Shown in pieces: positions 1,606 to 60,085 of a stretch of DNA of 64,000 bases; position 1 is the first letter of the stretch; every line of letters starts with the position of its first letter. The notes below the pieces were generated by a model that saw only the letters and a list, made by a program, of their open reading frames with translations, did not search any database and was not told the origin of the DNA. The DNA comes from a virus. The translations under genes were made by a program, and so were the position numbers. Where the stretch lies: the IMG/VR virus record IMGVR_UViG_3300014137_000003; one strand, given 5' to 3'.

Positions 1606-2358
1606 GTGGTAGTAGTAATGAGTTATGTTTTAAGTGAAAGAGACTTTAAAGTCTATTCGCAAGACTTTGCTCCCGTAGGATCTGTTAGTAGGACTTTGGG
1701 TGCAAATATAGGAGCCGTGTGGAGAGAGTTGTTATCTTTGGGTGATGACACTGTACACCGTGTCTCTGGGTTTGTATCTAGGGGTAGTAATGTCTATGCT
1801 TTAGTTTCGGATACTTATAAGGATGGTTTCAACCTTATAAACTGGGTAAAGGGGCACATCGATTTCAAACCTAAGGTATCTATCACTCCTATTAACTATT
1901 CTTTAGTTTTTGGTGAGGGTAGCTTACCTCGTGATATTGAAGAAATTCTAGAAGAGATTAACTCTGTTAGGTCTTTGTCACCGTCTTCTAGTCAGGTAAA
2001 CTCACCTTCTGAAGAAGTAGGTATCGCTTATGACGATGTTGCAACTTCTATCATCACTGAAGATTACTATTCTATTAGGGGTAGTGGTTTTGAGTTCTCA
2101 GTCTTTGATGAAGACAAAGAGTACATTATGGGACGTGGTTCTAACTGTGACTTTATTATCTCAGGTGTAGGGGTATCAAGACATCACTTGAAGTTCAAAT
2201 ATGAAGATGGTAGCTTGCAAGTGTTTGACTTAAACTCTACAAATGGTACTCGTGTAAACGGAAAACGAATTTATAGTGGCTCATGGGTAAACGTTGCTGA
2301 TGGTAGCACTATCAAGGTTGGTAGAGTTAACATGAGTGTAAATCTAAGGGAGGAATAG
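1606..2358 (+). CDS. FHA-domain protein (unassigned ~165-aa N-terminal region + C-terminal FHA)
   Basis: The C-terminal 80 aa carry the FHA signature (YIMGRGSNCDFII..VSRHHLKF..LQVFDLNSTNGTRVNGKRI). The start may be ATG 1618 rather than GTG 1606. Confidence 0.85.
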   Translation: MVVVMSYVLSERDFKVYSQDFAPVGSVSRTLGANIGAVWRELLSLGDDTVHRVSGFVSRGSNVYALVSDTYKDGFNLINWVKGHIDFKPKVSITPINYSLVFGEGSLPRDIEEILEEINSVRSLSPSSSQVNSPSEEVGIAYDDVATSIITEDYYSIRGSGFEFSVFDEDKEYIMGRGSNCDFIISGVGVSRHHLKFKYEDGSLQVFDLNSTNGTRVNGKRIYSGSWVNVADGSTIKVGRVNMSVNLREE

Positions 2359-2362
2359 TATT

Positions 2363-3037
2363 TTGGAGATACAAGGATTTACAGACATTGGTGTCCGTTA
2401 TAAAAATAATCAAGATACTTATCTTGTAATGAGGCTCAATATAGATGGTATTGAGTCTTGTCTACTTTTATTATGTGACGGTATGGGTGGTCTTGAGGAC
2501 GGTAGCTTTGCTAGTCAGAGCGTTGTAAAAGCTATTCGAGATTTGTGCGTTGAAGGTAACTTATCTAAGGAAAGTGTACGAGAAGCAATAAATAATGTTA
2601 ACTCTATGCTCTTAGATAAGTATGGTAGTGTAGGTAAGCAGTGTGGGACGACTTGTTCTGTCTTAGTTCTTTCTGAGGGGACTTATTGGGGGTATCATAT
2701 CGGTGATTCTCGTCTTTATCATTTTAGAGATAAAAACTACAAAATCTTGACAGAAGACCACACAGCCCTAAATATGAAACGTAAGCGTGGAGAGGTTATC
2801 ACTCCAGAGATTGAAAGACGTTATCGTTCTACTTTGTCGAGGTGTGTTGGGGTAGTTAAGAATCCTCGGTTAGATTACCTTGAGGGTAGTTACTCTGAGG
2901 GAGATACTTTTGTTGCTTGCTCTGATGGTTTTTGGCACTATTGGGATATGTCTTTAGACAACTTAGAAAATTCTATTGAATTGGTAAAATCTAAAGGCGA
3001 ACGAGATAACATTTCGGTAGTGAGCGTGGAGGTTTAG
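2363..3037 (+). CDS. PP2C/PPM-family Ser/Thr protein phosphatase
   Basis: PPM motifs NQDTY, LLCDGMGG, GTTCSVLVL, HIGDSRLY, LTEDHT and ACSDGFW. TTG start 4 nt after the FHA gene stop. Confidence 0.85.
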   Translation: MEIQGFTDIGVRYKNNQDTYLVMRLNIDGIESCLLLLCDGMGGLEDGSFASQSVVKAIRDLCVEGNLSKESVREAINNVNSMLLDKYGSVGKQCGTTCSVLVLSEGTYWGYHIGDSRLYHFRDKNYKILTEDHTALNMKRKRGEVITPEIERRYRSTLSRCVGVVKNPRLDYLEGSYSEGDTFVACSDGFWHYWDMSLDNLENSIELVKSKGERDNISVVSVEV

Positions 3038-3038
3038 T

Positions 3039-5006
3039 GTGAAAGTTAATGATATTGTATTAAACAAGTATATTATCACAAAGATTATTTCAGGAGATGG
3101 AACTAATCGTAGGGGTATGTCAAACCTTTACAAAGCTAGGGATAAGGACTTAGGTATTTATTGGGCTATCAAGGAAATCATAAAGAATTCTGATGGTACT
3201 ATTTCACTTCAACAGAGGTCTCTTATTCGAGAAGCACAGATTATGCGGAAGCTCCAGCATCCTTCTATTCCTAGGATTGTTTCTATTGAGCAATTAGATG
3301 ACAGGGTTCTAATTATAATGGACTGGGCTGATGGTAGGTCTGTTGGTGAGTGGATTCGCTCTAGTGGAGCCATGCCTTTGCAACGAGGTTTGAATATCAT
3401 AAAAACTGTCTGTGGAGTAGTGGGGTATTTGCATAGTCGTCCTACTCCTATCTTTTACAGGGATATGAAACCTGAGAACATTATGTATGACCCATCTTCT
3501 AAGAGGGTAATGTTATTGGACTTTGGTATTTCTGTTGAGGTAGATTTCAGTAAACCTATCTCGGACAGGGTAGGAACTAAGGGGTACTACGATAAGTATT
3601 CTATTGCCCCAACAAAACGTGAGCTAGCTAATGGGGTAGGACCTAGGTACTTTGATTTACGTTCTGATATCTACTCTCTAGGTTGGACGATGTTCGAGAT
3701 CTTTACTGGAGTTAGCCCATATAACTATATTTTGCTTAAGTCTAGGAAAGTTGAGACAGTTATCTTATCTTTGCTTGAGAGTCGCTTACCAGAATTTGAA
3801 GATGAAGACTCTGAAAACCCAGAACTAAAAGAAAAGACGTGGTCTAAGTTTAGTGGTAGTTTAAGTAAATCTCTTCGTCACTCTTTAGAAGAGTTGGTTA
3901 CTGGAGGAGATATTGATGTATTTATCTCTAAAGCTATCAAAATTATTAAATCTGAGGTTTCTATTTTTGTCCCAGATGAAAATATAGTTAATCACTGTAT
4001 GACTGGGTTAGATAAAGAGTTACAAAAAGCCATTCACTCTCTTGGGAATACTTACATAGCCACAAGAGATGTAAGGGAGTACGCTAAGAATATCCCTCAA
4101 TCTTTGGCTGATGTAATTATAAAAGCTACTGAACCTGAACCAATAGACAGATTTCAATCCATCGAAGAATTACAAATTGCTCTTGAAGACCTAGAAAAGG
4201 TAGACAAGGGTTACAACAAACTTCTAAAACGAAGGGTAAACCAAGTAATCACTCTAGGAGTTTTGGGTATTGGCTTATGTTTAGGTTCTATTGCCCCTTA
4301 CATGGCTTATGAACAAGGGTTAAAGAACCAGTACCAGGTCTTAGTTGCGAATGCAAGTAAGTCAGGTAGTTTCTCGGACTACTTAAAGGTTATTGAGTAT
4401 GACCCTAAGGAGATTGACCCTTACTTTGGTTTGATTGACTCTATTAAAGCAGATGGGGTGTTCACCAAAGACGAAGAGAGTACAATGCTAGACTTAATTA
4501 ACCCTAACCTCCCTACCTTAGAAAAGAGTAAGAGGTACAAGGAGTTAGCTTTCGAGATTGGTCGTTTATACTGGTTGTACTATGACGGTGGTAAATCAGA
4601 GGAAATTGCAAGTAGGTGGTTTAAAGACGCCAAGGGTTACAATCAGTTAGCTGATGTTTTCTATTCTATTGGTTCTTTCCCTACGGCAGTTGTTAAATCT
4701 GCTAACGAAGGTTCTGATGCAGGAATGTATAAGAAACAATGGGAAATCTTAAACTCTGTAACTGGTCAATCAGAGTTAACAAGTTTACAGATAGCAAAAG
4801 CTCAGCTTTACTTGGTAGATACCTATACTAGTAGGCTAAGGTCTGATGGGGTATCTAAGGAAGATGTTCTATCTAAGCTTTCTGAAATTTCTAGTTTAGT
4901 TAATAGCTCTTCTAGTGGTGATTCTCGTCAATCTCGTCTAGCTAATGAGCTTAAAAAATCTCTTCCAGAGGTTTTAGAAAAGGTTGAGGTGGCTTACAGT
5001 GTTTAG
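3039..5006 (+). CDS. Hanks-type Ser/Thr protein kinase with one TM helix and a ~230-aa helical ectodomain
   Basis: Kinase subdomains: WAIKEI (catalytic Lys), YRDMKPENIMY, LLDFGIS and SDIYSLGWTMFEIFTG. TM helix VITLGVLGIGLCLGSIAPYMAY. GTG start directly after the PP2C stop. Confidence 0.85.
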   Translation: MKVNDIVLNKYIITKIISGDGTNRRGMSNLYKARDKDLGIYWAIKEIIKNSDGTISLQQRSLIREAQIMRKLQHPSIPRIVSIEQLDDRVLIIMDWADGRSVGEWIRSSGAMPLQRGLNIIKTVCGVVGYLHSRPTPIFYRDMKPENIMYDPSSKRVMLLDFGISVEVDFSKPISDRVGTKGYYDKYSIAPTKRELANGVGPRYFDLRSDIYSLGWTMFEIFTGVSPYNYILLKSRKVETVILSLLESRLPEFEDEDSENPELKEKTWSKFSGSLSKSLRHSLEELVTGGDIDVFISKAIKIIKSEVSIFVPDENIVNHCMTGLDKELQKAIHSLGNTYIATRDVREYAKNIPQSLADVIIKATEPEPIDRFQSIEELQIALEDLEKVDKGYNKLLKRRVNQVITLGVLGIGLCLGSIAPYMAYEQGLKNQYQVLVANASKSGSFSDYLKVIEYDPKEIDPYFGLIDSIKADGVFTKDEESTMLDLINPNLPTLEKSKRYKELAFEIGRLYWLYYDGGKSEEIASRWFKDAKGYNQLADVFYSIGSFPTAVVKSANEGSDAGMYKKQWEILNSVTGQSELTSLQIAKAQLYLVDTYTSRLRSDGVSKEDVLSKLSEISSLVNSSSSGDSRQSRLANELKKSLPEVLEKVEVAYSV

Positions 5007-5424
5007 TTTATTTATTGTAATGTTGGTGAGTGGTTTACTACTTTTAGTCTTATCTGCAGTTCTTTATGTTGTATGGAATATTCCAGATGCAGTAGATGAG
5101 CTAAGTGGTAAAAAACGTAAAAGGCAGATAGAAAAACTACAAAAGGCAAGTATGGCAATTGGGGCTACTGGTGTTGTAGCTAGTACAACTCAGATGTTTA
5201 AGGATAGTGAGGAAGAAGAAGAGATTACAAATCTTATTCAAAATGCTCGTAATTCTTACACTGGTGAAGTACATTCTGATACTGACCCTTTAGAGGAAGA
5301 AGCTACTGGTATCATTCCTGAAGAACCTGTAGAAGAGTCCGTTGCTACGTTTTCCGAATCTGGTACTGTTGATAAGTTCGAGAATATTGTTATCTTGGAA
5401 GAGATAACTAATTTGGAGGTTTAA
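4984..5424 (+). CDS. small membrane protein with an acidic C-terminal tail
   Basis: N-terminal TM helix (FSLFIVMLVSGLLLLVLSAVLYVVW), a KKRKRQ stop-transfer and a Glu-rich tail. It overlaps the kinase stop. The more likely start is GTG 4999, behind GAGGTGG. Confidence 0.6.
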   Translation: MRWLTVFSLFIVMLVSGLLLLVLSAVLYVVWNIPDAVDELSGKKRKRQIEKLQKASMAIGATGVVASTTQMFKDSEEEEEITNLIQNARNSYTGEVHSDTDPLEEEATGIIPEEPVEESVATFSESGTVDKFENIVILEEITNLEV

Positions 5425-5425
5425 T

Positions 5426-8398
5426 GTGAATAAGAGAACTAAAAATAGTTTAACGACAGGTCTTTTATTAAGTACTGCCGTACTAGGGGTATATGCATCT
5501 AAGGGGTATGTATCTGCCGACGAGTTAACTAATAACCCCTCTACTTCGGTTGTTTCAGGTGCGACTCCTAGTACAGGGGTAGCATCGGTGGAAGTACCTA
5601 AGGTAGCTTCAACGGTGGAGGCAACTCCTACAGTTGAGGTAGCACCTAAGGCTGAGGTTACCCCTACAACAGGGGTAGCTCCTACTAATAATGTAGCTCC
5701 CACAGCTCCTACAGCTCCTACAGTTTCCGAAGCTCCTACAAACAAGGTAACTTCTCCAGCTGAGGCAGCTCCTACAACTGAGGTGAAACCTAGCGTAGCT
5801 GAAACTCCCAAGGCAGAAGAAAAACCTAAAGCTGAGACTCCTAAAGCAGAAGAAAAACCTAAAGAAAAGGTAATTACTAACGCTGAGGAGAAACCTAGCA
5901 TTGGCAAAGCTCCTAAATCTGAGGACGGCTCAACTTCAAAAGATGAAGAAAAACCTAACACTGGTGAGACACCTAAATCTGAGGAAACTCCAAAGGCGTC
6001 TACACCTACATTTAACTTCACCTTAGGTGGAAGGGATGAGTCTGTAACGGATACTCCTAGTAAGCTTGACTTAGGTGAGGAGGTTTCTTTCGAGAATAAC
6101 ACAAAACATACGGATGTCACTTATAAACAAGTTACATCTAATGGTGTTACTTTCGATTTAACAAAGAACAAAGTTAAACCTATCACTTCTAAGCTTATCG
6201 CAGTGTATAAAGACGATAAAGGTGAAGAACAGGAAGTCCAAGTTGCTGAAATTACTGGTACTAAGGTTTATAACCTAGATCTATCCTATAGTAACACAGG
6301 TAACTCAGTGACTTATACTTTTGATGTAAACCAACTATTGGAAAAAGACTCTTATCAGTCTAAGTATAAAGTCTTGGTAGATGGGGTAGAAGTTCAGGAC
6401 TTTGACTCTACAGAAGATGAAATCACTGGTACTCTTAATTTAATTAATAAATTAAGCGAAGGTACTCACACAGTTGAGATTGCAGGTCAATCGAAGTTTG
6501 GGGTAGTTGTTTCGGGTAAAGATACTGTTATTGTCCCTAAAGAGTTTGTTCCAAACCCATCTCCAGCACCTCTTCCTAATAGCGATAAGCAACCAGGAAC
6601 TGCGACTGGTGGGGATGTACCTTACAACCCAGTACCAGGGTATGACAACACTAACACCAACCCTAAAGTAAACCCTACGGTTACTCCTACAGTTAATCCT
6701 ACGGTTACTCCTGCAGGTGGTGGAGATGCTCCAGTAGTTAATCCGGATAGAGGTAACACTGGTGGGTTGACTCCAACTCCTAGTCCTATTCCTAGCCCAA
6801 GCAAGGATAACAATCCTTATGAAGTACCTACTGCTCCTCAACCAGCTCCAGTTAAAGAGCCAGTTAGGGGTGTTGAGGACGTAAGAGTTGGTGGAGTTTC
6901 TATTTATGGGGACGCTCCTAAACCTAGTGGGGTAGCTACTAATGGTGACACTACTACATTCACAGACCCTAAAAAAGTAGACATTAGGGTAAATCTTGAT
7001 ACGTCAGTAATTGATAGCTCTCGTACAGTACTTAAGCTTGTAGGTCGTGAGCAGGGTGAGATTGGTGCTAGTCAGTTTGTAGAGTTGAAAGACGGTGCTT
7101 ATAAGATTAAAGGTGTCGCAAAAGACGACTTCTACACTCTTACCATTAAAGCCTATGACAAAAACGGTAATTTGGTTACTGACACAGTTGAAACGTTCTC
7201 TGTGAACAAGGGAGGTTCTAAGTACTCTATCTCCAACAAAGGTCTTGCAGGTTCATCTGTTAAAAACCTCAATTCTAATCTTAAGATTGAGGAAACTAAC
7301 GTAGATAAAATCAAATCAGATAAAACTACTATTAAGGTATTCCTAGATGGTAAGCTTGTTGAGTTACCTAAAGATGCAATTAAAGTATCTAGGTCTGGTG
7401 GAGTTTCAGGTAAATGGAAGTACACTTACTCAATCAACAAGAATAAGTTTAAGGCTGAAGGGGTATACACTATTGAGGTTTATTCTGAATCTGAAACTGG
7501 TGTAAACTACAATTCAACTAAGAAAACTCTTCAATTTACGGTTGATAGGACTCCAGCGGAAATTTCTATTAGTGGTGTCCGTGATGGTGGTAGGTATAAG
7601 GCATCTAGCAAACGTATCACTATTGATATTCGTGATATCTCTGAGTTAAAATCTGTTAAAGCATTCTTGAATGGTAAAGAAGTAGAACTTGAATACGATT
7701 CAGAGACTGGTCTTTACTACTATGAAATGAAATCTAGTGGTAAGGGTAAAAATGAATTTGTTGTTGAGGTAGAAGATGCAGCAGGTAACGTATCTACTGA
7801 AACTGTTAAAGGTTTCTACTTAAGTGAAGATTTGGCTTTCTCTATCTTTAACGATGACAACTTGTACTGGCTACTAGGGGGTATCGCAGCAGCAACTGGT
7901 GGATTCTTAGGATTCTTGGCTCTACGTCGTAAACGTAAACTTGATGAAGAAGACCGCTTGGCTCTAGAACAGGCTGAGTTACTTGCAGCAAGTGCCTCAT
8001 CTAGTGGTTCTGAGACAGTAGGTGAATCTCCAGAGTCTTCTGATGAACGCTTTAACGTAGATGATATTCTACCAGCGGGTGAAGAAATTTTGTCTGTCTC
8101 TACTGAAGAAGTTCAAGATACTGATTTGGAAGGTTCTCAAGACGTTGAAGCAACTGATGTTCTTCCAGAAGATGAAGAGTTCTCAGAAGATAATGAAGCA
8201 ACAGATGTTATCCCAGAAGACGACGAGGACTCAGAAGATAACGAAGCTACTGACGTTATTGAAGACGACGAAGAATCTGAAGACAACCAAGAAACAGATG
8301 TTATCGAAGACTCTTCTGACGAAGACGAGTTAAAAACTGATGTTATTGATGAAGACTCTTCTGAAGATAACGAACCTACTGATATTGTAGAAGATTAA
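5426..8398 (+). CDS. large surface protein anchored by a C-terminal TM helix, with a hyper-acidic cytoplasmic repeat tail (no LPXTG)
   Basis: GTG start behind GGAGG. Signal peptide, then a Pro/Thr/Ala/Lys-rich low-complexity region and a long beta-rich middle part. TM helix LYWLLGGIAAATGGFLGFLAL followed by RRKRK, then a 150-aa Asp/Glu tail with six TD-containing repeats. Confidence 0.8.
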   Translation: MNKRTKNSLTTGLLLSTAVLGVYASKGYVSADELTNNPSTSVVSGATPSTGVASVEVPKVASTVEATPTVEVAPKAEVTPTTGVAPTNNVAPTAPTAPTVSEAPTNKVTSPAEAAPTTEVKPSVAETPKAEEKPKAETPKAEEKPKEKVITNAEEKPSIGKAPKSEDGSTSKDEEKPNTGETPKSEETPKASTPTFNFTLGGRDESVTDTPSKLDLGEEVSFENNTKHTDVTYKQVTSNGVTFDLTKNKVKPITSKLIAVYKDDKGEEQEVQVAEITGTKVYNLDLSYSNTGNSVTYTFDVNQLLEKDSYQSKYKVLVDGVEVQDFDSTEDEITGTLNLINKLSEGTHTVEIAGQSKFGVVVSGKDTVIVPKEFVPNPSPAPLPNSDKQPGTATGGDVPYNPVPGYDNTNTNPKVNPTVTPTVNPTVTPAGGGDAPVVNPDRGNTGGLTPTPSPIPSPSKDNNPYEVPTAPQPAPVKEPVRGVEDVRVGGVSIYGDAPKPSGVATNGDTTTFTDPKKVDIRVNLDTSVIDSSRTVLKLVGREQGEIGASQFVELKDGAYKIKGVAKDDFYTLTIKAYDKNGNLVTDTVETFSVNKGGSKYSISNKGLAGSSVKNLNSNLKIEETNVDKIKSDKTTIKVFLDGKLVELPKDAIKVSRSGGVSGKWKYTYSINKNKFKAEGVYTIEVYSESETGVNYNSTKKTLQFTVDRTPAEISISGVRDGGRYKASSKRITIDIRDISELKSVKAFLNGKEVELEYDSETGLYYYEMKSSGKGKNEFVVEVEDAAGNVSTETVKGFYLSEDLAFSIFNDDNLYWLLGGIAAATGGFLGFLALRRKRKLDEEDRLALEQAELLAASASSSGSETVGESPESSDERFNVDDILPAGEEILSVSTEEVQDTDLEGSQDVEATDVLPEDEEFSEDNEATDVIPEDDEDSEDNEATDVIEDDEESEDNQETDVIEDSSDEDELKTDVIDEDSSEDNEPTDIVED
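8147..8398 (+). repeat. six in-frame tandem repeats of ~42-48 bp encoding E-A-T-D-V-I/L-P/E-E-D-D-E-x-S-E-D-N
   Basis: Read directly: EATDVLPEDEEFSEDN / EATDVIPEDDEDSEDN / EATDVIEDDEESEDN / QETDVIEDSSDEDE / LKTDVIDEDSSEDN / EPTDIVED*. Confidence 0.9.
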
Positions 8399-8400: not shown

Positions 8401-8433
8401 AAGATAGCCCTTAATTGGGTTATCTTTTTTTAT
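8401..8433 (+). terminator. rho-independent terminator
   Basis: AAGATAGCCC-ttaatt-GGGTTATCTT hairpin followed by a T-run. Confidence 0.7.
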
Positions 8434-8461: not shown

Positions 8462-8529
8462 TTCTATTTAATTATCTTTGAGATTATTATATACTAGGTA
8501 TAGAAAAACTTTTGGAGGTATTTTGGTTT

Positions 8530-9552
8530 ATGGAAAAGAATAAGCCTAAGAAGAAGGTAGTTGATGTTGTTATTGATTCTTTCTTAAAGCGTGTTCAAGA
8601 GAAGGGTGTTATGCCTTGGCAGGACCCTCATACGTTCGGTATTGCTATCAACTGGGTATCTAAGAAGATGTATCGTGGTCTTAACCGTATGATTCTCCCT
8701 AACGGAGAGTATATGACTAAGAACCAGTTAAACAAGTACAATGAAGAGCACGGTGAAGACTATAAATTCCAAAAGGGTATCGAATGGTTCCCAGTTGTAT
8801 TTTATTCTTTAAAACAGTACAAAATTAAAGCAGAGGATATTAACACTGAACTAGAAGGTAATACTTTGAAGGTTGGTCAAAGTTATGTCAATCTTAAAGG
8901 TAGGAAAATCACTAGAACTAAGACTGGGTATTTCAGCGAGTATATGATTATGAAGTATTCATTGGTTGCTGAAATTCATCACTTTAAGAACTCTAAGGGT
9001 GAGACGTTACCTCGTCGGATTGGTGATACTCTAGATTCTGACTTAATGCTTTCAAAAGAAGAACCCCAAAAGGTTATTGACAGTTATGTTAAACGTTCAG
9101 GCGTTAAATTTGAAGAAATCAACGACGGTATGTCTTATTATAACCCAGTTAGGGATTTAGTGCATGTCAATGAGAGTTATAATTGGGCTAATGCCAAGTA
9201 TTCTGTTACCTTTCATGAATTAGCTCATTCTACTGGTCATGCTACTCGCCTAGACCGTATCGGGGTAACTTCCTCCGATGGATTTGCAGGTGCTAAGTAT
9301 TCAGTAGAAGAGTGTATCGCTGAGATGACTGCAGCTCTCTTGTGTCAGGAGACTGGTATTAGTGATTTCGTTACATCGGGTACTTTAAGTGAAACTAACT
9401 CTTTAGCTTATGTACAGCATTGGTCTAAGGCAATTAAAGACTTTGGTAGCAAGTTCCCTAGTATCTGTCGTCAGGCAGAGCAAGCTTATCTCTACATTCT
9501 TGGAGAAGATGAGGATAGCCAAGTTGGTGGAAGTTCTGTTACAGAAAGATAG
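8530..9552 (+). CDS. ardC: ArdC-family antirestriction protein (N-terminal ssDNA-binding domain + zincin-like metalloprotease domain)
   Basis: N-terminal PW...Y.G.N..L pattern (VMPWQDPH..MYRGLNRMIL). C-terminal FHELAHSTGHATRLDR and YSVEECIAEMTAALLC. GGAGG lies upstream of ATG 8530; the ORF track starts at 8512. Confidence 0.85.
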   Translation: MEKNKPKKKVVDVVIDSFLKRVQEKGVMPWQDPHTFGIAINWVSKKMYRGLNRMILPNGEYMTKNQLNKYNEEHGEDYKFQKGIEWFPVVFYSLKQYKIKAEDINTELEGNTLKVGQSYVNLKGRKITRTKTGYFSEYMIMKYSLVAEIHHFKNSKGETLPRRIGDTLDSDLMLSKEEPQKVIDSYVKRSGVKFEEINDGMSYYNPVRDLVHVNESYNWANAKYSVTFHELAHSTGHATRLDRIGVTSSDGFAGAKYSVEECIAEMTAALLCQETGISDFVTSGTLSETNSLAYVQHWSKAIKDFGSKFPSICRQAEQAYLYILGEDEDSQVGGSSVTER

Positions 9553-10568: not shown

Positions 10569-11057
10569 TTGTTTTCATTAAAAGATACAGAAACAAATGT
10601 AGAATATACTTTTGAAGACAATGTGGCTTTAAGGGAACAGTATATGTTAGGTTTGTTATTGCCTATTAGGGGTAGAGAGACCTTTAAGGTAGTAGTGCGA
10701 AAGACTTCTTGTTTTGATTATTCTATGGTTAATAAGATACTTAATCGAATCGGTTCTCCAACTAAATACTATAAATACTACAAGTCTGGCGATGTTCACG
10801 TTCTTGAAGGGTTCACTGATGAGAATGAGTATAGACTCTATAAGAAGGAAGAATTACGTCAAAATGTCTTCAATGCCTTCTTTTTTGTAATTGCATTTAT
10901 TGTCATTTACCTATTCCAGAGGTATGTATTTGATATACAAAGTCTTTTGTTAGCTAGTTTCTATTGGTTTCTTGTTTTAGGGTGTGTTATGTTTGTTTTA
11001 TCTTTACTCCCAGATAAACCTAAGAATATTGTCATCTTAGATTGTGATAAGTTATAA
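10569..11057 (+). CDS. membrane protein, paralog A of a tandem pair
   Basis: Shares ALREQYMLGLLLPIRG.E.FKVVVR..YSMV..RIGSP.KYYKYY..VLEGFTDE.EY with ORF 11129. Two C-terminal TM helices. TTG start behind GGAGG. Confidence 0.65.
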   Translation: MFSLKDTETNVEYTFEDNVALREQYMLGLLLPIRGRETFKVVVRKTSCFDYSMVNKILNRIGSPTKYYKYYKSGDVHVLEGFTDENEYRLYKKEELRQNVFNAFFFVIAFIVIYLFQRYVFDIQSLLLASFYWFLVLGCVMFVLSLLPDKPKNIVILDCDKL

Positions 11058-11128: not shown

Positions 11129-11674
11129 ATGATTTCATTTAAGGATTTATTTTGGGAAAAATGGTGTAAGTTTCTAGAAAGGGAGCGTTTAAAGTCTGAG
11201 AAAAGTAAACGTGACTTTGAGGAGACTCTCGCTCTAAGAGAGCAGTATATGCTAGGTCTGTTATTGCCTATTAGGGGTAAAGAGTCCTTTAAAGTAGTAG
11301 TTAGAGACCCTTTCAACTTTGACTATTCTATGGTTAAGGAGTTACTCCATCGTATTGGCTCCCCTGCTAAGTATTACAAATACTATGAGTATGACAGTGT
11401 TTGTGTCCTTGAGGGTTTTACTGACGAGAAAGAGTATAAGTCCTACAAGAGAGCAGAGCTGTATCAACTTGCATCAATGGTATTTTTCTATGTAGTTTTA
11501 TTTATTATTGTCTATATATTCCAAAGGTATGTGTATGGAATATATGGTATTTTTATAGCCAGCCTTTATTTGTCAGTCTCAGCTTATCTTGTTGTAGGAA
11601 TTGGTGTATTTGTTTTATCTTTATTTCCTAGTGAATCAGGGAACAAATCTCTCATAGGGTATGATATATTATGA
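11129..11674 (+). CDS. membrane protein, paralog B of a tandem pair
   Basis: About 85% nucleotide identity to 10569-11057 over the conserved core. AGGAG upstream. Two C-terminal TM helices. Confidence 0.7.
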   Translation: MISFKDLFWEKWCKFLERERLKSEKSKRDFEETLALREQYMLGLLLPIRGKESFKVVVRDPFNFDYSMVKELLHRIGSPAKYYKYYEYDSVCVLEGFTDEKEYKSYKRAELYQLASMVFFYVVLFIIVYIFQRYVYGIYGIFIASLYLSVSAYLVVGIGVFVLSLFPSESGNKSLIGYDIL

Positions 11675-17688: not shown

Positions 17689-18462
17689 ATGGGTATTCAT
17701 ATTAAAAGCACCAAGGAGGTTTTTATTACACCTTCTCTACCTAGTTCTTTCCCTTATGTAAAAGTTATAAATGGTTCTTTGTTTATTCGAATAAATGATC
17801 ACCGTACTCCTTATATTTCTTTAGAAAATTATCTAAGTGTTATGGAGTCTCACGGTGTAGTTGTAAAAACTACAGAAGAGTTGTCCTCAGCGTTAGGGGT
17901 ATCTATGATAGAAGTGGCGGATAATGTATTTCTAATAAATGGTTCTTTGCATAAGATATTCTCTTTGAAGACACTTTTAAGTGCGATAAATATAAGTAGA
18001 AGTTTTGCTTTAAAGTGTAAGGAAAATCATTTTTTGTATTATGATGTATTCAAAGACTTATTCAGAGATTACGCAAGGTCTAAAAGGTCTAAAAGGTCTG
18101 GAGCTAAAAAACCTGTAAAAGATTTTAATGGTAGGGTTTTCCCATCACAGACTGCTATGTTAGAGTTCTATGGTATTCCTTCAGGAACTTTTAATTCAAG
18201 AATGAGAAGTGGGTTTTCTTTAAAAGATTCTTTAACTTTACCTCAACTAAAGAAATCTAATAAAGTTAAGTGCAAAGACCATAAAGGTCGGGTTTTTTCT
18301 TCCATAAATGCTATGGCAGACTTCTATGGTATCGCCCCTCAAACTCTAAGGTACAGGTTAAAGAAAGGACTTTTTATAAAAGATGCTCTAACTAAACCTA
18401 TACAGGTCGAAATGGCTAGAAATAAAGGAGGTAGGCGTGTCTCTAGTAGGGAATCAAAATAA
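17689..18462 (+). CDS. HTH-repeat family protein 1 (conserved N-domain + 2 copies of a 42-aa NUMOD1-like repeat)
   Basis: Repeats VKDFNGRVFPSQTAMLEFYGIPSGTFNSRMRSGFSLKDSLTLP and CKDHKGRVFSSINAMADFYGIAPQTLRYRLKKGLFIKDALTKP. The N-domain is ~65% identical to 18535. Confidence 0.7.
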   Translation: MGIHIKSTKEVFITPSLPSSFPYVKVINGSLFIRINDHRTPYISLENYLSVMESHGVVVKTTEELSSALGVSMIEVADNVFLINGSLHKIFSLKTLLSAINISRSFALKCKENHFLYYDVFKDLFRDYARSKRSKRSGAKKPVKDFNGRVFPSQTAMLEFYGIPSGTFNSRMRSGFSLKDSLTLPQLKKSNKVKCKDHKGRVFSSINAMADFYGIAPQTLRYRLKKGLFIKDALTKPIQVEMARNKGGRRVSSRESK

Positions 18463-18534
18463 GGTAATCTACTAGAATGAAGTTAACTAGCAGTGGTTGC
18501 CTCTTATAGAGGGTCTAGTTTAAGGGGGTATTAA

Positions 18535-19104
18535 ATGGGTATTCTTTTCCGTAAGACTAGAGAGGTTTTTATTACTCCGACTTTGCCTAGTTCTTTTCCT
18601 TATGTGAAGGTTAAGGGTGATTCTTTGTTTATCGTAGTCGAAGGAAAGTCTCACCCCTACATCTCCTTAGAAAATTATTTAAGTGTTACGGAGTCTTACG
18701 GTGTAGTTGTTAGGACTACCGAAGAGCTATCAAAGGCTATAGGGGTATCTTTATTAGAGGTAGAGGACAATCTTTATTTACTTAATGGGAAGTTGTTTTC
18801 TATATACTCCTTATCTACACTATTAAGTGCTTTAGGTGTCCGTATCGGAACTGTAAATACTCAAAGGAAAAACTATGCTTTATACTACGATCTGTTTAAA
18901 GATTACTTTTCCAAAGGAAAGTTCCTTACTCAGAGAAAAGAGGGAATAGTAAAGGACTTCGAAGGAAGAGTTTTTAGCAGTATTTCTGAGATGTGTAGGT
19001 TTCACGGTATCAGCCTACAGACTTACTATCTAAGGAAAGAAAGAGGTCTGAAAGGGAAAGACTTATTTAGGAAAGGAAGGTTTAATCGTGGCACTAGTCG
19101 ATAA
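18535..19104 (+). CDS. HTH-repeat family protein 2 (1 repeat)
   Basis: The N-domain is ~80% nucleotide-identical to 17689. One repeat: VKDFEGRVFSSISEMCRFHGISLQTYYLRKERGLKGKDLF. Confidence 0.7.
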   Translation: MGILFRKTREVFITPTLPSSFPYVKVKGDSLFIVVEGKSHPYISLENYLSVTESYGVVVRTTEELSKAIGVSLLEVEDNLYLLNGKLFSIYSLSTLLSALGVRIGTVNTQRKNYALYYDLFKDYFSKGKFLTQRKEGIVKDFEGRVFSSISEMCRFHGISLQTYYLRKERGLKGKDLFRKGRFNRGTSR

Positions 19105-20083
19105 TATAAATAAGGTTATCTATTGGGACGAGGTAAACTGGCAGTGGTTTCCCTATATTAAGATTGAAGGTGAGAAGTTAAAAGTAAGGGATTTCAACCA
19201 AGGTATTAACATGTATAAAGATGTGCATTCCAGAGAAGAAATTATAGATCTTTTGTCAGAGGAGGGGTATCTGTTCTCTTCACTAAGTAGTTTAGGTGTA
19301 ACTGAGATTTCTAAGGGGTGTTACTTATATAATGGGACGATTTATAGAAAGATTGGAGAAGGTTCATTTAAGAATTTTTCTCAATTTCTATCTATGGTTA
19401 CGGGGTGGTCATTGGGTTATATTTATAAACAACTTAAGGGTTTAGGTGTAGTTTCTAAACAGTGGATAGAGGAATTAAACTCAAAAAAATCTAAGATTAC
19501 ATTTCAAGGAAAAGTTTATAATAGTTATTCGGAGTTTACTAAAGAATATGGACTTTCAAAGGCATATCTACATTCTAAACTGGATAAAGGTTTTAGCTTA
19601 GAGGAGATTGTTACTAATTATAAAAGCCCTAGAATGTCAATGAAGGATCATTTAGGGAATAAATTTAGCTCGGTAAATGAAATGGTAAAACATTGGGATA
19701 TCTCTTATTCTGCCTACAAAAGGCGTCTAGATAGGGGGTGGTCTTTAGAGAAGACTTTAACCACTCCTGTTAAAAAGAAGACTATAGTTAAAGAGTGCGT
19801 AGACTTTAAAGGTAATGTTTTTCCATCTATAAAAAGTATGGCTGAGAATTATGAAGTTCCATATTCTACCTTGTATAAACTTATAACTGGGGGTATGACT
19901 CCAGAAGAGGCTTTAGAATATTTATTATCTAAACGGGAAGTTACTGACCACTTAGGCAACTCTTTTACATCATATAATAAAATGGCAAAATTTTACGGAA
20001 TAAAGTCAGGAACCCTAAGCACACGTCTAAAGCGTGGTTGGACTTTAGAAGAGGCACTAACAGGTAAAAGAAAAGAGAGGTAA
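19088..20083 (+). CDS. HTH-repeat family protein 3 (4 repeats)
   Basis: GTG start overlapping the previous gene. Four repeats, e.g. MKDHLGNKFSSVNEMVKHWDISYSAYKRRLDRGWSLEKTLTTP and VTDHLGNSFTSYNKMAKFYGIKSGTLSTRLKRGWTLEEALTG. Confidence 0.7.
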   Translation: MALVDNINKVIYWDEVNWQWFPYIKIEGEKLKVRDFNQGINMYKDVHSREEIIDLLSEEGYLFSSLSSLGVTEISKGCYLYNGTIYRKIGEGSFKNFSQFLSMVTGWSLGYIYKQLKGLGVVSKQWIEELNSKKSKITFQGKVYNSYSEFTKEYGLSKAYLHSKLDKGFSLEEIVTNYKSPRMSMKDHLGNKFSSVNEMVKHWDISYSAYKRRLDRGWSLEKTLTTPVKKKTIVKECVDFKGNVFPSIKSMAENYEVPYSTLYKLITGGMTPEEALEYLLSKREVTDHLGNSFTSYNKMAKFYGIKSGTLSTRLKRGWTLEEALTGKRKER

Positions 20084-20095
20084 TAGTATATTTAA

Positions 20096-21682
20096 ATGGC
20101 GTTAAGGGATATAAAAAGAAAAATAGCTTATTGGGATGGTGTAAATATAACTTTCTTGCCGAATGTTACTCTAGGACCAAGGGGTAGTGGCTTGATGTAT
20201 AAGGGTAAGTTTTTCAAAGGAAAATTAGAGGAGTTAGTTCCACTAGTTGAGAAGGAGTACAAGTTAGTTACTTTTGATTCCTTGGGTCTAGATATAATGG
20301 AGGTAAAATCTAAGTGCTTTGTAGTAAAAGTTTTAGGGCAGTACCGTATAATTGAGACAGGAGCTCTAATTACTTTTATGTTAAACTATCTAACATTCTA
20401 TGGACGGGGTATTTCCCTAGAGTCTATTTCTACAAAGTATAGGGTAAATGACGTCCTTTCTATGACTTTACAGGACTTCATTAATTTCCCTCGCAAAGAG
20501 GAATTACTTCTAGGACTATCATCTGAGTTTGTTTTATATAACGGAGTTGTTTACCCTAGTTTAGATTACTTACAAAACCATCTTAAATTACAAGACTCTG
20601 ATATCTTTAAACTTTGTTGTAGTGGTTCAATTAAGGGTGAAGATCTCTTTAAGTTATCTGCCCCTTATGGCTCAGAGGAATTACAATCGGTAAGAAAGGT
20701 TGGCTCTAACCTTGTATTAGATTTCTCTGACGGTTCTTCTCCTTATATTGCACCAGAGTTATTCGAACTTTTTATGAGAAATGCAATACCTTTTAAACCC
20801 AGCTATGATTTAGGGAAAGGTGATCTAGGTATAAGGGATATAAATACGCTCTATACTGATTTTTACCTAAATAATTTTACTTTGAGAAAACATATTACAA
20901 AAACCAGAGGTTCTATATATGTAACTAAGAAGTACGAATCTTCTATATCTAACTATGTATCCTACTTCAAGGTAACAGGGAATGGTGAAATACTGTCTAG
21001 AATTTGTTTGTATTGTTATTATGAAGGTTTGTCTACTCTTTACAAATTAGGAATAAGTCAAGCAAAAGCTAAGTTAGTTTCCTTAGAAGGTTATTCTCTT
21101 TTTGAGAGTTTAGGAGAACGATTTAAAGAACATGTTAGAAGGTTTTCTGATTTATCTTATTCTGTTTCTCCTACTGTCAATCTAGAAAGGAAGAAAGTAC
21201 GTTTCTTAGGTAAGTCGTTCACAACTAACGTTTCTTTAGATAGTTACCTAAAAGAGATAGAAAATTTTCTTAAAGATACTCAAGAGTTTCTTACTGTGGT
21301 TAGATTTTTAGGGTTTACACTTCCTAGCAAAGATGTTTTCGTTAGCTTATACAGGAAGTCACAAGAAGGTAGGGTAATTTACAAAGACCATTTAGGTAAA
21401 GAGTTTATGCGTTTAGCAGATATGGCTGATGCGTGGGGTATCTCTGTTTTTGCTTTAAAATATAGACTTGGTAGAGGGTGGGATGTTGAGCGTGCTTTAA
21501 CTCAGCAAGAACCTAAGTCGTTATCTTTTCTTGGTGAGGAAATTAGAGATCACTTAGGAAATCAATATAAGTCTTTTAATGCTATGTGTAAAGCCTATGA
21601 TTTAAATCCCTCTACTGTTAAAGCTAGACTTAAAGGCGGAATGCCTTTAGAAGAAGCACTAACAAAAAGACCACGAAAGTAA
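20096..21682 (+). CDS. HTH-repeat family protein 4 (long N-region + 2 repeats)
   Basis: The N-terminus IAYWDGVN..FLPNV resembles 19088. C-terminal repeats YKDHLGKEFMRLADMADAWGISVFALKYRLGRGWDVERALTQ and IRDHLGNQYKSFNAMCKAYDLNPSTVKARLKGGMPLEEALTK. Confidence 0.7.
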   Translation: MALRDIKRKIAYWDGVNITFLPNVTLGPRGSGLMYKGKFFKGKLEELVPLVEKEYKLVTFDSLGLDIMEVKSKCFVVKVLGQYRIIETGALITFMLNYLTFYGRGISLESISTKYRVNDVLSMTLQDFINFPRKEELLLGLSSEFVLYNGVVYPSLDYLQNHLKLQDSDIFKLCCSGSIKGEDLFKLSAPYGSEELQSVRKVGSNLVLDFSDGSSPYIAPELFELFMRNAIPFKPSYDLGKGDLGIRDINTLYTDFYLNNFTLRKHITKTRGSIYVTKKYESSISNYVSYFKVTGNGEILSRICLYCYYEGLSTLYKLGISQAKAKLVSLEGYSLFESLGERFKEHVRRFSDLSYSVSPTVNLERKKVRFLGKSFTTNVSLDSYLKEIENFLKDTQEFLTVVRFLGFTLPSKDVFVSLYRKSQEGRVIYKDHLGKEFMRLADMADAWGISVFALKYRLGRGWDVERALTQQEPKSLSFLGEEIRDHLGNQYKSFNAMCKAYDLNPSTVKARLKGGMPLEEALTKRPRK

Positions 21683-30054: not shown

Positions 30055-33000
30055 ATGAAAGAAATTAAGTTAGTTAGTAAACAAGGTTTCCGTATGTGGA
30101 AATCAGGTAAAATTTGGTTAACTTCTGGTGCCGTTGCAGGTGTGGCAGTAGTAGCCCTTGCAGGAGGTACTGTTAAAGCGGATGAAAATACTGCAGCAAC
30201 AACTTCGGGTGCACCGACAACTGCCGTAACTGCTCCAGCTCCTGCAGCAACAACTGCACCAGCAGCTCCGGTGGCAGCTACTACAACTCCAGCTCCAGCA
30301 GCAACAACTCCAGCTCCAGCAGCAACTGCTGAAACTCCTGCAGCTACAACAACTGCTCCAGCAACTTCAACTGCTCCATCTGAACCTACTGGCGTAGCCG
30401 TAACTGAGGGTTCTATTACAAATGATACTGCCACTGGTTTGGCAGCTAATAACCTTAAGGATGCAGCAGCAGGTCGTTCTGAAGAAGGAAAACAAGCTGA
30501 TTCTAACGCAGGTAAAGTTACTGGTGAAACATCAGTATCTATCGACCACAAAGAAGTAACTGACGCAGCTAAAAAGGCTGAAGGTGTTGGTGTAAAAGTG
30601 GTTCAAGACCCTACATCTGTAGCTCCTACAGCATCAAATGCATCACAAGCTGAAAAATCTAAAGGTTCAATCGTAGCTAAAGAGCATGCAAAAGCAGAAG
30701 AATTGAAATCAACTGCTACTGCACATTCAACTGCAGTGTCTAACTGGACAGCAGAAAAGAATTCTGTAGTTAAAGCAAATGAAGATTTGAATAATGCTCA
30801 CAAATCAGCAGTCGAAGCTTACAACAAATTTGTATCAACTTTAGATGCAGATACTGCAGCAGTAGTTGCAAAACACAAAGATGCTATCATCAAAACTACT
30901 GAAAAAGTACAAAACCTTGCTGACGGTTCTACCGTAGAGGGGTATCAAGCTTACATTAAATCACTCGCTGATCAACAAGCTTTGAACAAACAAGCTATTG
31001 CTGATTACTTGGCTAAAAAGGCAGAATTCGATGCAACTTCTGCTAAAGCTAAAGCAACTGTAGCAGAAAATGCTAGTCTTTCTGCTAGTGTAGTAGCTAA
31101 GAACAACAGCCTTTCTGCAAGTGTTGTAGCTAAAAACAACAGTCTTTCTGCAAGTGCAGTAGCAGAAACTGCTAGTCGTTCTAACTCTGCGAAAGCTGAA
31201 AACGAACGTTTGTCTCTATCAGCACAAAAAGCTACTGATGGTACTAACGCTACTGCATCAAACGCAGCTAAAAAAGTCAATGACGAAGCTAATGCCTACA
31301 ACAAATCTGTTATGGAAGCAGCAGGTCTTCAATGGACTGGTGATTACGCTAAAGATAGTGCCACTGTAGAAGCTTACAACTCTAAGAAATCAAAAGAAGC
31401 TAACTCTTCTGAAGACCCAGTATTTAACGGTGGTTACGACCGTAATCAAGCTCTTCCAGCAGCAGCTAACGGTTACACACCTAGCGGATCTTCAACTATG
31501 TTGAGCAAGGTTGAAGTTGCACCAGGTATTGAAGCCATCGCAACTGGTGACCTTACACAACACGGTGCTAAAGTTCACTTGCGTGGTGATAATGTTAACC
31601 CAGCTAAAATCGTTACAAAAGTAAACTGGGGTAACGTCGAACTTGAAGGTGATAACAAACGTACTTTCGTACCAGGTGACAACAATGACATTTGGGGTAA
31701 CACTTATGGATATGCAAGTGGTGGAGCTAATCGTTTCTACATTGTAAACCAACTTCAATGGTACAAGATTCCTAATGGTGCCACTACAATGGATGGTACA
31801 GTTCATGACCTTTGGGTAATGTTCCACAAAGATGCAACAGGTTTGCACCCAGCTTATCAAACTGGTGAAGTAGCCGTTTGGAACGCAAATGGTGCAGTTA
31901 ACGCCATTGACGGTGGTACAGAACACCTTAGCGACCGCCCAGGGGATGGTATTCGTGCAGTCTACTCTCTAGACACACCTGACAACCATGACCCAGAAGT
32001 TCTTTGGATGGAATTGATTGCTGACATCGACGGTGGTCAAATGATGCAAGATATTGGGGGTATGAAGATCCTCGGTGTCGGTGGTGGTTTCGCTACTGAC
32101 TCTGTAGTTACTAATAACCCTCGTGTAGACGAACAACTTGGTTACGAGTATGGTATCGGACGTAACGATAAGTCTGCATTGAATGGTTACAATTCATCAC
32201 CAGATGGTACTCTCCTTGCAATCGGTTCAGGTCTCTTCACTTATGTAGTTCGTAACACACCAGGTGGTAACAGTACAGGTGTTGCCCGTGCTGACTTCGG
32301 TGGTGATGCAACTACATCAGTAGCACTCGTTAAGAAGTTTAATCCTATCACTCTTAAACCTTTGACTTCTTACAACCCAGGTAAATCTGAGTACACTCCA
32401 GTAACTTTCAAACCTGCTGAGTTTACTCCAGAGAAGTTCACTCCAGAAAACTTCACTCCGAAAGAAGTTCCTAACGTTCCTCAAGCTCCAACATTGAGCT
32501 TGACTAAACTTACTGACCCAGCTAAACCTAAGCTTAAAGAAGTTCCTAAAGAACCTCAAGCTCCAACAGTTCACTACAATTTGACAGCTTTGAATGTTAA
32601 CACACCTGTTGACAAGTCTGTTGAAAATGAAGATGGCGTTGACATCAATGGTCAGTCTGTTGCTAAAGGTTCTGTAAACGTATTTAAACTTTCTCCAAAA
32701 GCTCTTTCAGCTGGTCGTCCTGTTACGGAATCTATCGTAAACAGCGACTACATCGACAATGGTTTGGAAACTCTTGTTGATAAAGTCAAAGAAGACAACA
32801 GCAAGGCTTATGATGTAACTTATGATGCAACAACTCGTTTGTTGACATTCAAAGCTAACGCATCTGAAATTGCTCGTGCGAATGCTGATCGCTCTAAAGA
32901 GTACACACCAACTCCAATCAAAGTTACTTACAAAGTGCTTAACGATGCAGCAATGTATGAAAATACATTCAAGATGGATGTGAACGGTGGTGCTACTACT

Positions 33001-34419: not shown

Positions 34420-34442
34420 CTAACTTAGTTAATATATTAAGA

Positions 34443-34470
34443 AGCTCGCAGTTACTGTGGGCTTTTTATT
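34443..34470 (+). terminator. rho-independent terminator
   Basis: AGCTCGCAG-tta-CTGTGGGCT stem (two G-U pairs) followed by TTTTTATTT. Confidence 0.65.
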
Positions 34471-34789
34471 TAATTCTTGTACTGTATATGTTATTAAAGG
34501 TTGGGGTAGTTAAATTACTGTGGAAGTAGTTTAAGTCTTTCAACTTGGGAAGTTACTTGGGGTAGCTTATTCCAGACGGGATTTATTTTAGTATCGTTTT
34601 GTTACTATTTTACATTCCTTTGTTTTCTTATATACAGTTACTTTAAATTTTTTAGGGAATTACTTTGTATTTTTTATAAGTTTATAGTAAACTTATATTT
34701 GTAGTTTGGTAGGTGTGTCGTAGGTTTATTACCTATTATATACTTTACCTATTCTTATATTTTATGTTTAACACAAGGAGTTTTATATT

Positions 34790-55356: not shown

Positions 55357-55366
55357 GAGGTTGATT

Positions 55367-56206: not shown

Positions 56207-56229
56207 AATTTTAGAAAGTTGGTTTATGT

Positions 56230-56975: not shown

Positions 56976-56984
56976 GAGTTTCTT

Positions 56985-57692: not shown

Positions 57693-57716
57693 AATAACTA
57701 AGGAGTTTTATAAGTT

Positions 57717-60083: not shown

Positions 60084-60085
60084 GT

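Follow-up and report, generated by a model that had tools for sequence, protein, structure and literature searches.

We analysed a 64,000-nucleotide (nt) stretch of DNA from a virus record (IMG/VR record IMGVR_UViG_3300014137_000003), referred to below as the window, and studied a compact block of five genes at window positions 1606-8398. The block encodes, in this order, a protein with an FHA domain, a PP2C phosphatase, a Hanks-type Ser/Thr kinase, a small single-pass membrane protein and a 990-amino-acid (aa) surface protein. It is compared below with variants d, e and j of the type VII secretion system (T7SSd/e/j), whose components carry Tsx names. An earlier note, made by a model from the letters alone (the original prediction), had described five abutting genes here, and all five open reading frames (ORFs) were confirmed as co-directional on the + strand. 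The features are listed below, where pThr stands for phosphothreonine, TM for transmembrane, AF2 for AlphaFold2 and pLDDT for its predicted local distance difference test.

1606-2358, + strand: FHA protein, putative TsxJ-like pThr reader (GTG start at 1606, ATG at 1618 the likelier start); Pfam FHA 3.3e-16, aa 173-239
2044-2055, + strand: T143-S-I-I in the linker of the FHA protein, candidate phospho-site (self or trans FHA binding); near-invariant A-T-x-x-[I/L]
2363-3037, + strand: PP2C/PPM phosphatase, TsxF-like, Stp1/IreP-like; Pfam PP2C_2 4.4e-11
3039-5006, + strand: receptor-type Hanks Ser/Thr kinase, TsxD-like; Pfam Pkinase 3.1e-33
3735-4052, + strand: kinase C-lobe insert of ~100 aa (aa ~233-338), from homologue alignment
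4236-4307, + strand: kinase TM helix, aa 400-423; hydropathy 1.86, the sole segment at or above 1.6
4320-5003, + strand: kinase ectodomain, aa 428-655, all-alpha and TPR-like; AF2 pLDDT 81.6, 12 helices
4999-5424 (alternative TTG start at 4984), + strand: small single-pass membrane protein, TsxH/K-like, from topology and profile; no Pfam family
5426-8398, + strand: 990-aa surface protein, TsxI-like, from topology and homology; only weak Big_13/CE2_N matches in Pfam
7868-7924, + strand: TM anchor of the big protein, aa 815-833, then RRKRK, from hydropathy
8141-8395, + strand: six T-D-[V/I]-[L/I/V] sites in the tail of the big protein, candidate multi-site FHA ligands, from motif positions and tandem repeats
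8401-8426, + strand: terminator-like hairpin and T-run; 10-bp stem, then TTTTTATTTG
8512-9552, + strand: ArdC-like anti-restriction protein, downstream neighbour outside the operon; ArdcN and MPTase-PolyVal (Pfam), PHROG anti-restriction 3.8e-33

The genes were tightly packed: the intergenic gaps measured 4, 1 and 1 nt, while the kinase gene and the small gene overlapped by 8 or 23 nt, depending on the start of the latter. Gene callers on identical metagenomic copies placed the start of the FHA gene at ATG 1618 (246 aa) and that of the small gene at GTG 4999 (141 aa; the longer ORF gives 146 aa). Two mutually overlapping small genes, 1057-1290 and 1287-1601, lie upstream, and the second ends 4-16 nt 5' of the FHA gene. 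Because these genes abut the FHA gene and are kept in close relatives, the transcription unit probably begins upstream of 1606. Directly 3' of the big gene, the unit closes at the terminator-like hairpin at 8401-8426. The five-gene operon of the original prediction was confirmed in its order and packing; its 5' boundary probably has to be moved, and the starts of the FHA and small genes were shifted.

To survey the gene neighbourhood, we compared the block with related metagenomic loci, which carry L numbers below. All close loci, whose kinases are 66-99% identical, had the order FHA-PP2C-kinase-small-big. It was also found in L046-L048, L050-L052, L054, L057, L066 and L067, and in a rearranged form in L058 (kinase 29-41% identical). 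The order was the same in more than 40 independent metagenomic loci, which is far beyond chance. The expectation that the five genes co-occur in related elements was borne out in all related loci, down to the lowest kinase identities. An ArdC-like gene followed the module in all close loci as well as in L047 and L050; the module of L054 was followed by a topoisomerase gene.

The AF2 model of the FHA protein (pLDDT 82) comprised an alpha/beta N-domain (aa 1-119), a linker (aa 120-146, pLDDT below 50) and the FHA domain (aa 150-246). The FHA domain had been recognised correctly in the original prediction, and the supposed 165-aa N-domain was resolved into a folded domain of ~119 aa and a disordered linker of 27 aa. 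The pThr-pocket residues G172, R173, S187, H190, S207, T208 and N209 were invariant in 29 homologues. The nearest solved FHA domains were those of FhaA/Rv0020c, GarA, OdhI and EmbR, with the FHA domain of FhaA/Rv0020c (3po8) as the top Foldseek match; against TIGR03354 VI_FHA the protein scored 35.5 bits (cut-off 120). Distant matches of the FHA protein were DUF3662 proteins. An assignment of the N-domain to FhaA_N/DUF3662 was considered and appears excluded by sequence comparison, with an hhalign probability of 0.4% for the N-domain. In the linker, the 12 sequences compared, which reach down to 20% identity, all had A142, and at least 90% of them had T143. In the window protein T143 lies only 7 residues ahead of the first FHA strand. 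At this distance a GarA-like intramolecular switch is therefore unlikely, and binding in trans is possible.

The catalytic residues of both enzymes were strongly conserved. The metal-binding residues of the PP2C protein (N16, Q17, D18, D39, G40, G42, G43, D115, D188, G189, D215 and N216) were invariant in 15 homologues. In the kinase, K45, E65, D142, K144, N147, D161-F-G and T180 were invariant in 13 homologues, down to 28% identity. Judged from these residues, the kinase, the phosphatase and the pThr pocket of the FHA domain appear intact. Topology was assigned from hydropathy and the positive-inside rule, here and for the other proteins. The kinase has a single TM helix (aa 400-423), which places aa 428-655 on the extracellular side in the prediction. 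The description as a receptor-type kinase with a helical ectodomain was supported by this one TM helix and by the 12-helix AF2 model. The C-lobe insert was variable; distant relatives do not have it, nor do the 555-aa kinases of a subfamily on ~175-kb contigs (L092-L095).

The ectodomain was conserved to the same degree as the kinase domain. A Foldseek search of the ectodomain against the PDB returned nothing better than an E value of 0.02, and its sequence profile matched only generic TPR repeats there (OGT), via the first ~50 aa. Its family contains at least 233 clusters at 50% identity, and nearly all members carry it at the C-terminus of proteins of ~530-650 aa. A Pfam kinase domain was present in 7 of the 10 family members scanned. 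These results indicated that the ectodomain marks a receptor-kinase family for which Pfam has no model.

The small protein consists of a TM helix (aa 1-32), the basic sequence KKRKRQ, a juxtamembrane DELSGKKRKRQI, an acidic disordered tail and a conserved C-terminal stretch, VILEEITNLEV. A second, mildly hydrophobic stretch reached at most 0.78 and was not counted as a TM helix. Since the single TM helix is followed by KKRKRQ, the tail is predicted to be cytoplasmic. Across most of the family, a juxtamembrane [DE]-[DE]-L-[ST]-G-[RK] and the C-terminal stretch were conserved, with the acidic tail between them. Profile searches mostly recovered close relatives and added one subfamily (L092-L095).

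The big protein carries an N-terminal Sec signal peptide, a TM helix (aa 815-833) followed by RRKRK, and a tail of 155 aa with 65 Asp and Glu and 6 Lys and Arg residues. The signal peptide and the single TM helix followed by RRKRK place this tail in the cytoplasm as well, and the cytoplasmic location of both acidic tails, as originally proposed, agrees with the predicted topology. Identity to relatives was 30-35% in the distal domain, 61-66% in the membrane-proximal part (aa 471-812) and 77-83% in the tail-proximal helix. The poorly conserved distal part and the conserved membrane-proximal part and helix fit a variable outward tip on a conserved base that touches conserved partners, possibly the kinase ectodomain. 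The big proteins of distant relatives were 1409-2850 aa long, with a signal peptide or an N-terminal TM helix and a C-terminal TM helix. Their tails measured only 8-38 aa, and the long acidic tail was confined to the window clade. The immunoglobulin (Ig)-like character of the window protein was reflected only in the weak Big_13 match. A sequence search of the big protein against the PDB gave only histone matches, which were rejected as spurious products of the TM and tail region.

The tails and the FHA linker share a short motif, T-x-x-[L/I]. In the tail of the big protein, sites were found at T910, T926, T942, T957, T971 and T985, and each big tail of the window clade carried four to seven T-D-[V/I]-[L/I] sites. 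Most of the sites in the window are encoded by tandem repeats at 8146-8311 (45-48 nt, ~80% matches), which shows that they arose by tandem duplication. In the big tails of 30 relatives, T-x-x-[L/I] occurred 167 times against 40.5 expected (z 22), and in the small tails 73 times against 38.6 expected (z 6), both z-scores being upper bounds because related sequences overstate independence. The corresponding S-x-x-[L/I] was depleted in the big tails (24 vs 47 expected) and less frequent than expected in the small tails (34 vs 49.3), and yet Ser is commoner than Thr in the tails. The small tail of the window has sites at T77 (TNLI), T95 (TDPL) and T103 (TGII), and two to six copies were found across most of the family. 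The variants differed between loci: TSFL/TSFI/TSYL in L047, TGFI/TDFL in L048, TTLL/TTIL/TTVL in L052, TGKL/TGIL/TERL in L054, TSLL/TTLL/TVLL in L067 and TGII and TDPL in the window. Moreover, the flavour of the motif co-varied between FHA linker and small tail within a locus (TTVL in L052/57, TG[YF][IL] in L048/51, TS[FY][LI] in L047).

FHA domains require pThr rather than phosphoserine, and many of them read a hydrophobic residue at position +3. Because the enrichment is specific to Thr and matches this preference, the pattern seems compatible with kinase sites that are read by the FHA domain. The two membrane proteins had been put forward as candidate substrates of the kinase. For the small protein the motif makes this candidacy general across the family, and for the big protein it extends only to the window clade with its long acidic tail. 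The new element here is the T-x-x-[L/I] motif itself, which recurs in the small tails and the FHA linker and is tandemly expanded on the big tail of the window clade; the available part of the T7SSd/e/j description (PMC11217815) does not report it.

The T7SSd/e/j variants were described by Garrett et al. (2024, microLife, PMC11217815). [quoted passage not shown] TsxI is a large protein with a Sec signal, Ig-like domains and a C-terminal TM helix, proposed to span the envelope, and TsxJ combines an N-terminal DUF6382 with a C-terminal FHA domain. These systems further include an ATPase (TsxC), a WXG100 protein (TsxA) and a ubiquitin-like protein (TsxB). Measured against this account, the window module contains the same five component types, TsxJ/F/D/H(/K)/I. 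When compared feature by feature with T7SSe, it showed the features of TsxD, TsxF, TsxH/K and TsxI, and those of TsxJ were not found, as the FHA protein is without DUF6382.

The kinase ectodomain, the big protein and the small protein of the window were also homologous by sequence to those of T7SSe-type loci. The ectodomain alone matched the kinases of L052 and L057 at 2e-11 and 5e-10. For the big protein, its membrane-proximal part matched the big proteins of the T7SSe-type L067/L057/L052 (7e-36 to 1e-18) and the giant proteins of L047/48/50 (1e-42 to 1e-48). A small-protein profile of the window and mid clades, built without the L067 and L057 sequences, picked up the T7SSe-type small proteins of L067 (1e-5) and L057 (2e-4). 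The flanks of L052, L057 and L065 encode an EssC-type ATPase (FtsK_SpoIIIE 5e-49), a DUF4176 protein and a WXG100-like protein, the last a weak match of 24 bits, below the Pfam cut-off. Since the five component types match and the homology extends to T7SSe-type loci, the five-gene architecture is already described, as the accessory half of T7SSd/e/j (PMC11217815). The claim that the architecture was undescribed had to be abandoned.

The window module differs from T7SSe in several respects. Its kinase carries the extra insert of ~100 aa, its big protein has the acidic tail of 155 aa with six T-D-V-[I/L] sites, and it lies on a giant plasmid-like element with ArdC downstream. In the available part of PMC11217815, carriage of T7SSe by mobile elements is not reported and the question of plasmids is left undecided. 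In addition, the N-domain of the FHA protein is not DUF6382. DUF6382 was above threshold in the FHA proteins of L057, L065 and L066 (1e-10 to 5e-13) and was not found in those of the window, L047 or L051, even at E values up to 10. As far as sequence can tell, this identity of the window N-domain was ruled out (hhalign probability below 1%). The window N-domain resembled that of the L047-L051 group (E 7e-4).

In the window, an EssC-like ATPase was not found by tblastn or jackhmmer, and a WXG100 protein was not found by jackhmmer with four WXG100-like queries, a search of low sensitivity for such short helical proteins. The four small upstream proteins had no Pfam match. Neither EssC nor WXG100 was found in ~17 kb of flanks from near-identical contigs (~7 kb upstream, ~10 kb downstream), nor within about ±9-10 kb of the module in the other close loci and subfamilies, where an FtsK_SpoIIIE annotation was likewise not found. 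The L047-L051 group likewise had no T7SS genes nearby, and ArdC follows its module where the contig allows (L047, L050). From the shared FHA N-domain, the lack of nearby T7SS genes and the ArdC linkage, it follows that a deep clade of the module associated with mobile genetic elements exists, consisting of L046-L051 and the window clade.

To characterise the carrier, we examined the contigs that hold the module. The exact window kinase was found on metagenomic contigs of up to 186 kb and relatives with 66-76% identity on contigs of up to ~255 kb, so that the carrier contigs span ~175-255 kb. The guanine-cytosine (GC) content of the window was ~37.5%, its GC skew was strongly positive, and nearly all ORFs longer than 120 aa lay on the + strand; the exceptions are five - strand ORFs, each nested within a larger + strand ORF. 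Besides ArdC, the window has genes for a helicase, a 5'-3' exonuclease and a clamp-loader-like ATPase. From window position 55361 to 64000, and on in L096:10843-17645, there are four paralogous membrane proteins with a common C-terminal two-TM module, followed just past the window end by a 1623-aa membrane protein and a 618-aa hydrolase with a CHAP domain. The block from 55 kb looks like a type IV secretion system (T4SS) of the Gram-positive kind; its window proteins had no Pfam match. An antigen I/II adhesin (AgI_II_C2 1e-30, Antigen_C, LPXTG) is encoded together with a second LPXTG coiled-coil protein at 30055-37933, and this adhesin points to an oral streptococcal host. From these features we infer that the carrier is a large, mobile, conjugative plasmid-like element of oral streptococci. 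The mobile-element carriage suggested in the original prediction looks right in view of ArdC, the T4SS-like block with its CHAP hydrolase and contigs of 175-250 kb.

A jumbo phage was also considered as the carrier. Four carrier contigs are in IMG/VR, but ten window proteins had no structural PHROG match and the region beyond 55 kb is T4SS-like, and this identity was set aside. Neither the plasmids of PLSDB nor the phages of GenBank gave a megablast match to the region. In a scan of 185,579 species-representative genomes, the sole match was a 235,995-bp contig in a metagenome-assembled genome of an uncultured Mogibacterium (L008/L042). In this contig the kinase, small, big and ArdC genes are frameshifted and split into several ORFs. 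The contig probably represents an element of this type that was assembled with many errors and binned wrongly.

Collectively, we consider it rather probable that the block is one conserved operon for a transmembrane Thr-phosphorylation switch homologous to TsxJ/F/D/H/I, carried beside ArdC on an oral-streptococcal element of ~175-250 kb, with a T7SS ATPase and WXG100 not found within reach. This reading builds on the gene set, its conservation, the homology to T7SSe-type loci, the intact catalytic and pThr residues, the topology and the enrichment and co-variation of the motif. The self-contained phospho-signalling of the original prediction gains plausibility from the invariant active sites, the pThr pocket and the motif; that these parts act as a switch is what we infer. 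In the proposed mechanism, the TPR-like ectodomain of the kinase would read a cue on the envelope side, and this cue may be the conserved membrane-proximal portion of the big protein. The kinase would then phosphorylate the Thr of T-x-x-[L/I] in the small tail, in the FHA linker and, in the window clade, in the six-fold repeat of the big tail. The FHA domain would dock on the pThr via the hydrophobic +3 residue and bring its N-domain to the membrane complex, and the PP2C phosphatase would reset the system. The output may be the assembly or gating of an envelope-spanning complex, for transfer, contact or exclusion rather than classical T7 export. In true T7SSe loci, these sites could also serve the pThr-competent FHA domains of TsxC.

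Known systems offer precedents for this arrangement. In Agrobacterium's type VI secretion system (T6SS), PpkA phosphorylates the membrane protein TssL and Fha then binds it (PMC5995506; cited in PMC11217815). The PpkA-PppA-Fha1 pathway (PMC5995506) resembles the window module in that the genes of a membrane Hanks kinase, a PP2C phosphatase and an FHA protein accompany those of the machine under their control. The T6SS pathway is Gram-negative, comes with T6SS core genes and has a different periplasmic domain in PpkA, so that homology is limited to generic domains; in contrast, the window has a Gram-positive context, a TPR-like ectodomain and multiple copies of T-x-x-[L/I] on dedicated tails. 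In pIP501, TraF is a pseudokinase like T7SS EssB and is essential in a Gram-positive T4SS; its authors propose capture from a T7SS and remark that TsxD kinases have the same bitopic layout (PMC13037476). EssB/YukC-EssC(FHA) and TraF have in common with the module a bitopic protein in which a TM helix joins a kinase-fold domain to an outer domain and which is paired with FHA domains. Unlike the window kinase, phosphatase and pThr pocket, which appear intact, they are pseudokinases with phosphorylation-independent FHA contacts. Given the PpkA/Fha and TraF precedents, the likeliest output would be an envelope complex for transfer, contact or exclusion whose assembly or gating is under phosphorylation control. 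The layout of N-domain, disordered linker and C-terminal FHA domain also recalls FhaA(Rv0020c)-MviN-PknB/PstP and GarA/OdhI, and GarA/OdhI share the Thr site on the reader itself. Unlike in FhaA, the N-domain is not DUF3662, and unlike in GarA, the linker Thr lies too near the FHA domain for an intramolecular switch.

Several points weigh against this interpretation. The phospho-switch is a product of computation, the motif z-scores behind it are upper bounds, and L050 has neither a Thr in the FHA linker nor acidic T-x-x-L sites in the small tail. In the window protein, T143 appears too close to the FHA domain for intramolecular binding, which would leave only binding in trans. Because the N-domain has no detectable DUF6382 similarity, the proposed orthology of the FHA protein to TsxJ is limited to its position and the FHA domain. 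The view taken here covers ~81 kb of an element of ~180 kb, so that a gene for a TsxC ATPase may lie on the remainder. The conjugative plasmid-like type of the element is likewise deduced.

A further extension of the preferred reading, which we hold only tentatively, is that a widespread family of giant oral-streptococcal plasmid-like elements has taken over a T7SS-derived module detached from the T7 ATPase and rewired it to control their Gram-positive T4SS, mating contact or entry exclusion, with the tandem pT-D-V-[I/L] array on the big tail as an FHA docking strip that depends on phosphorylation. A competing explanation, which we regard as unlikely, is that the element carries a full T7SSe-like system. 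The five genes would be its accessory half, TsxC/TsxA/TsxB would lie elsewhere on the element or be replaced by a host T7SSb, and the module would regulate ordinary export of LXG-type toxins. The homologous modules inside the T7SS loci L052, L057 and L065 speak for it, as do the ~100 kb of the element outside the inspected part and the description of kinase, phosphatase and FHA protein as core parts of T7SSd/e/j in PMC11217815. However, no EssC-like ATPase was found in the 64-kb window, FtsK_SpoIIIE was not annotated in the ±10-kb flanks of the close loci, and the deep mobile-element clade is linked to ArdC, not to T7SS genes. An IMG/VR scan with the EssC HLILATQKPSGVVD (ATQ[KR]P) motif adds weak negative evidence, in that four carrier contigs of 178-232 kb were not among the best 80 loci.

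The module could instead be a surface-exclusion or adhesion device, in which phosphorylation of the tail tunes the clustering or exposure of the big protein and a secretion channel plays no part. This fits the hypervariable distal and conserved membrane-proximal parts of the big protein, as in surface recognition proteins, the neighbours of early or leading-region type (ArdC downstream, a methylase-like homologue upstream) and the long tail with six motifs specific to the window clade. Because the distant big proteins have almost no tail, tail phosphorylation is not the ancestral function. The homologues are, moreover, built into T7SS loci, and TsxI is proposed to span the envelope as a machine part there (PMC11217815). 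We consider this explanation improbable.

A hijacked host Stk1/Stp1 pair that reprogrammes growth, with the FHA and membrane proteins as accessories, is very improbable. The stp1-stk1 genes abut with the phosphatase before the kinase, which is the order of the module. The best named matches were the Stp1/IreP PP2C family for the phosphatase (NCBIfam Stp1_PP2C, 119 bits, 1.8e-34) and the Stk1 PASTA-kinase family for the kinase domain (8.2e-36). Both scores were far below the family cut-offs; the kinase reached 124 bits against NCBIfam PknB_PASTA_kin (cut-off 450), and only through its kinase domain. PASTA repeats had no Pfam match in the kinase, the ectodomain belongs to its own separate family, and the strict linkage to the small and big membrane proteins over deep divergence suggests dedicated local substrates. 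An anti-phage or abortive-infection kinase system can practically be set aside, since the matches to PADLOC PD-T4-6 (kinase, 2.8e-41) and PDC-M21C (PP2C, 6.6e-12) were confined to generic catalytic domains, the FHA, small and big proteins had none, and the receptor topology, the giant surface protein with a signal peptide and the T7SS-embedded relatives are unlike known defence kinases.

The carrier resembles the Inocle elements of oral Streptococcus (S. salivarius; PMC12340149) in kind; membership is unproven. Both are giant, plasmid-like and known only from metagenomes, and both combine genes on one strand, strong GC skew and LPXTG adhesins with an inferred residence in oral streptococci. 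They differ in GC content (~37.5% vs 32% or 24%) and in size (contigs of 175-255 kb vs circular elements of 245-395 kb). The InoC marker (replication-relaxation, PF13814) was not seen in the Pfam-scanned proteins of the window, among them eleven encoded outside the module, and the window is part of the element; and the main text of the Inocle paper (PMC12340149) does not mention kinase, phosphatase or FHA proteins.

Further observations concern the window and its neighbours. Cumulative GC skew climbed almost monotonically over 1-64000, which suggests a single replichore of a large replicon. The patch at 30055-37933, with GC of 0.40-0.43 and skew near zero, was unlike the rest of the window and is probably acquired cargo. 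The window starts inside a gene (145-333). Full-length homologues of this gene (~413 aa) are located upstream of the module in every close locus, and the distant L048 and L051 have them there too; the copy at L051:4743-5933 had a weak DNA-methylase match (N6_N4_Mtase 4e-7). The ArdC-like gene is intact in the window and split into two ORFs in several near-identical copies (L001:15482-16521, L003, L010), owing to either frameshift variation or assembly error. Adjacent paralogues at 10569-11057 (162 aa) and 11129-11674 (181 aa) have in common both 'ALREQYMLGLLLPIRG(R/K)E(T/S)FKVVVR' and a hydrophobic region at the C-terminus. Three adjacent paralogues (257, 331 and 528 aa) at 17689-21682 contain repeats of ~45 aa, 'KDHLGN.F.S...MA..YGI...TL..RL..GW.LE.ALT'. 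A 231-aa protein at 42153-42848 gave weak matches to Sigma70_r4 and the RNA polymerase alpha C-terminal domain, and a similar RNA_pol_A_CTD protein recurs in L094 and L095. At 49938-51365 there is a hyper-acidic protein of 475 aa, without an assigned family, made of repeated 'EEYDEENDPDNPD(N/S)G'-type units.

Knowledge of the T7SS variants that contain a kinase, a phosphatase and an FHA protein comes solely from gene-neighbourhood work, and the module links these variants to giant elements. It also attaches a function that can be tested to one conserved core block of these elements. The T-x-x-[L/I] repeats provide a testable idea for switching in T7SSd/e, with TsxH as a multi-pThr scaffold for FHA proteins, possibly including those of TsxC. 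Should the module truly operate with no T7 ATPase, TraF of pIP501 would be joined by a second, much larger example of T7SS parts recruited into Gram-positive conjugation.

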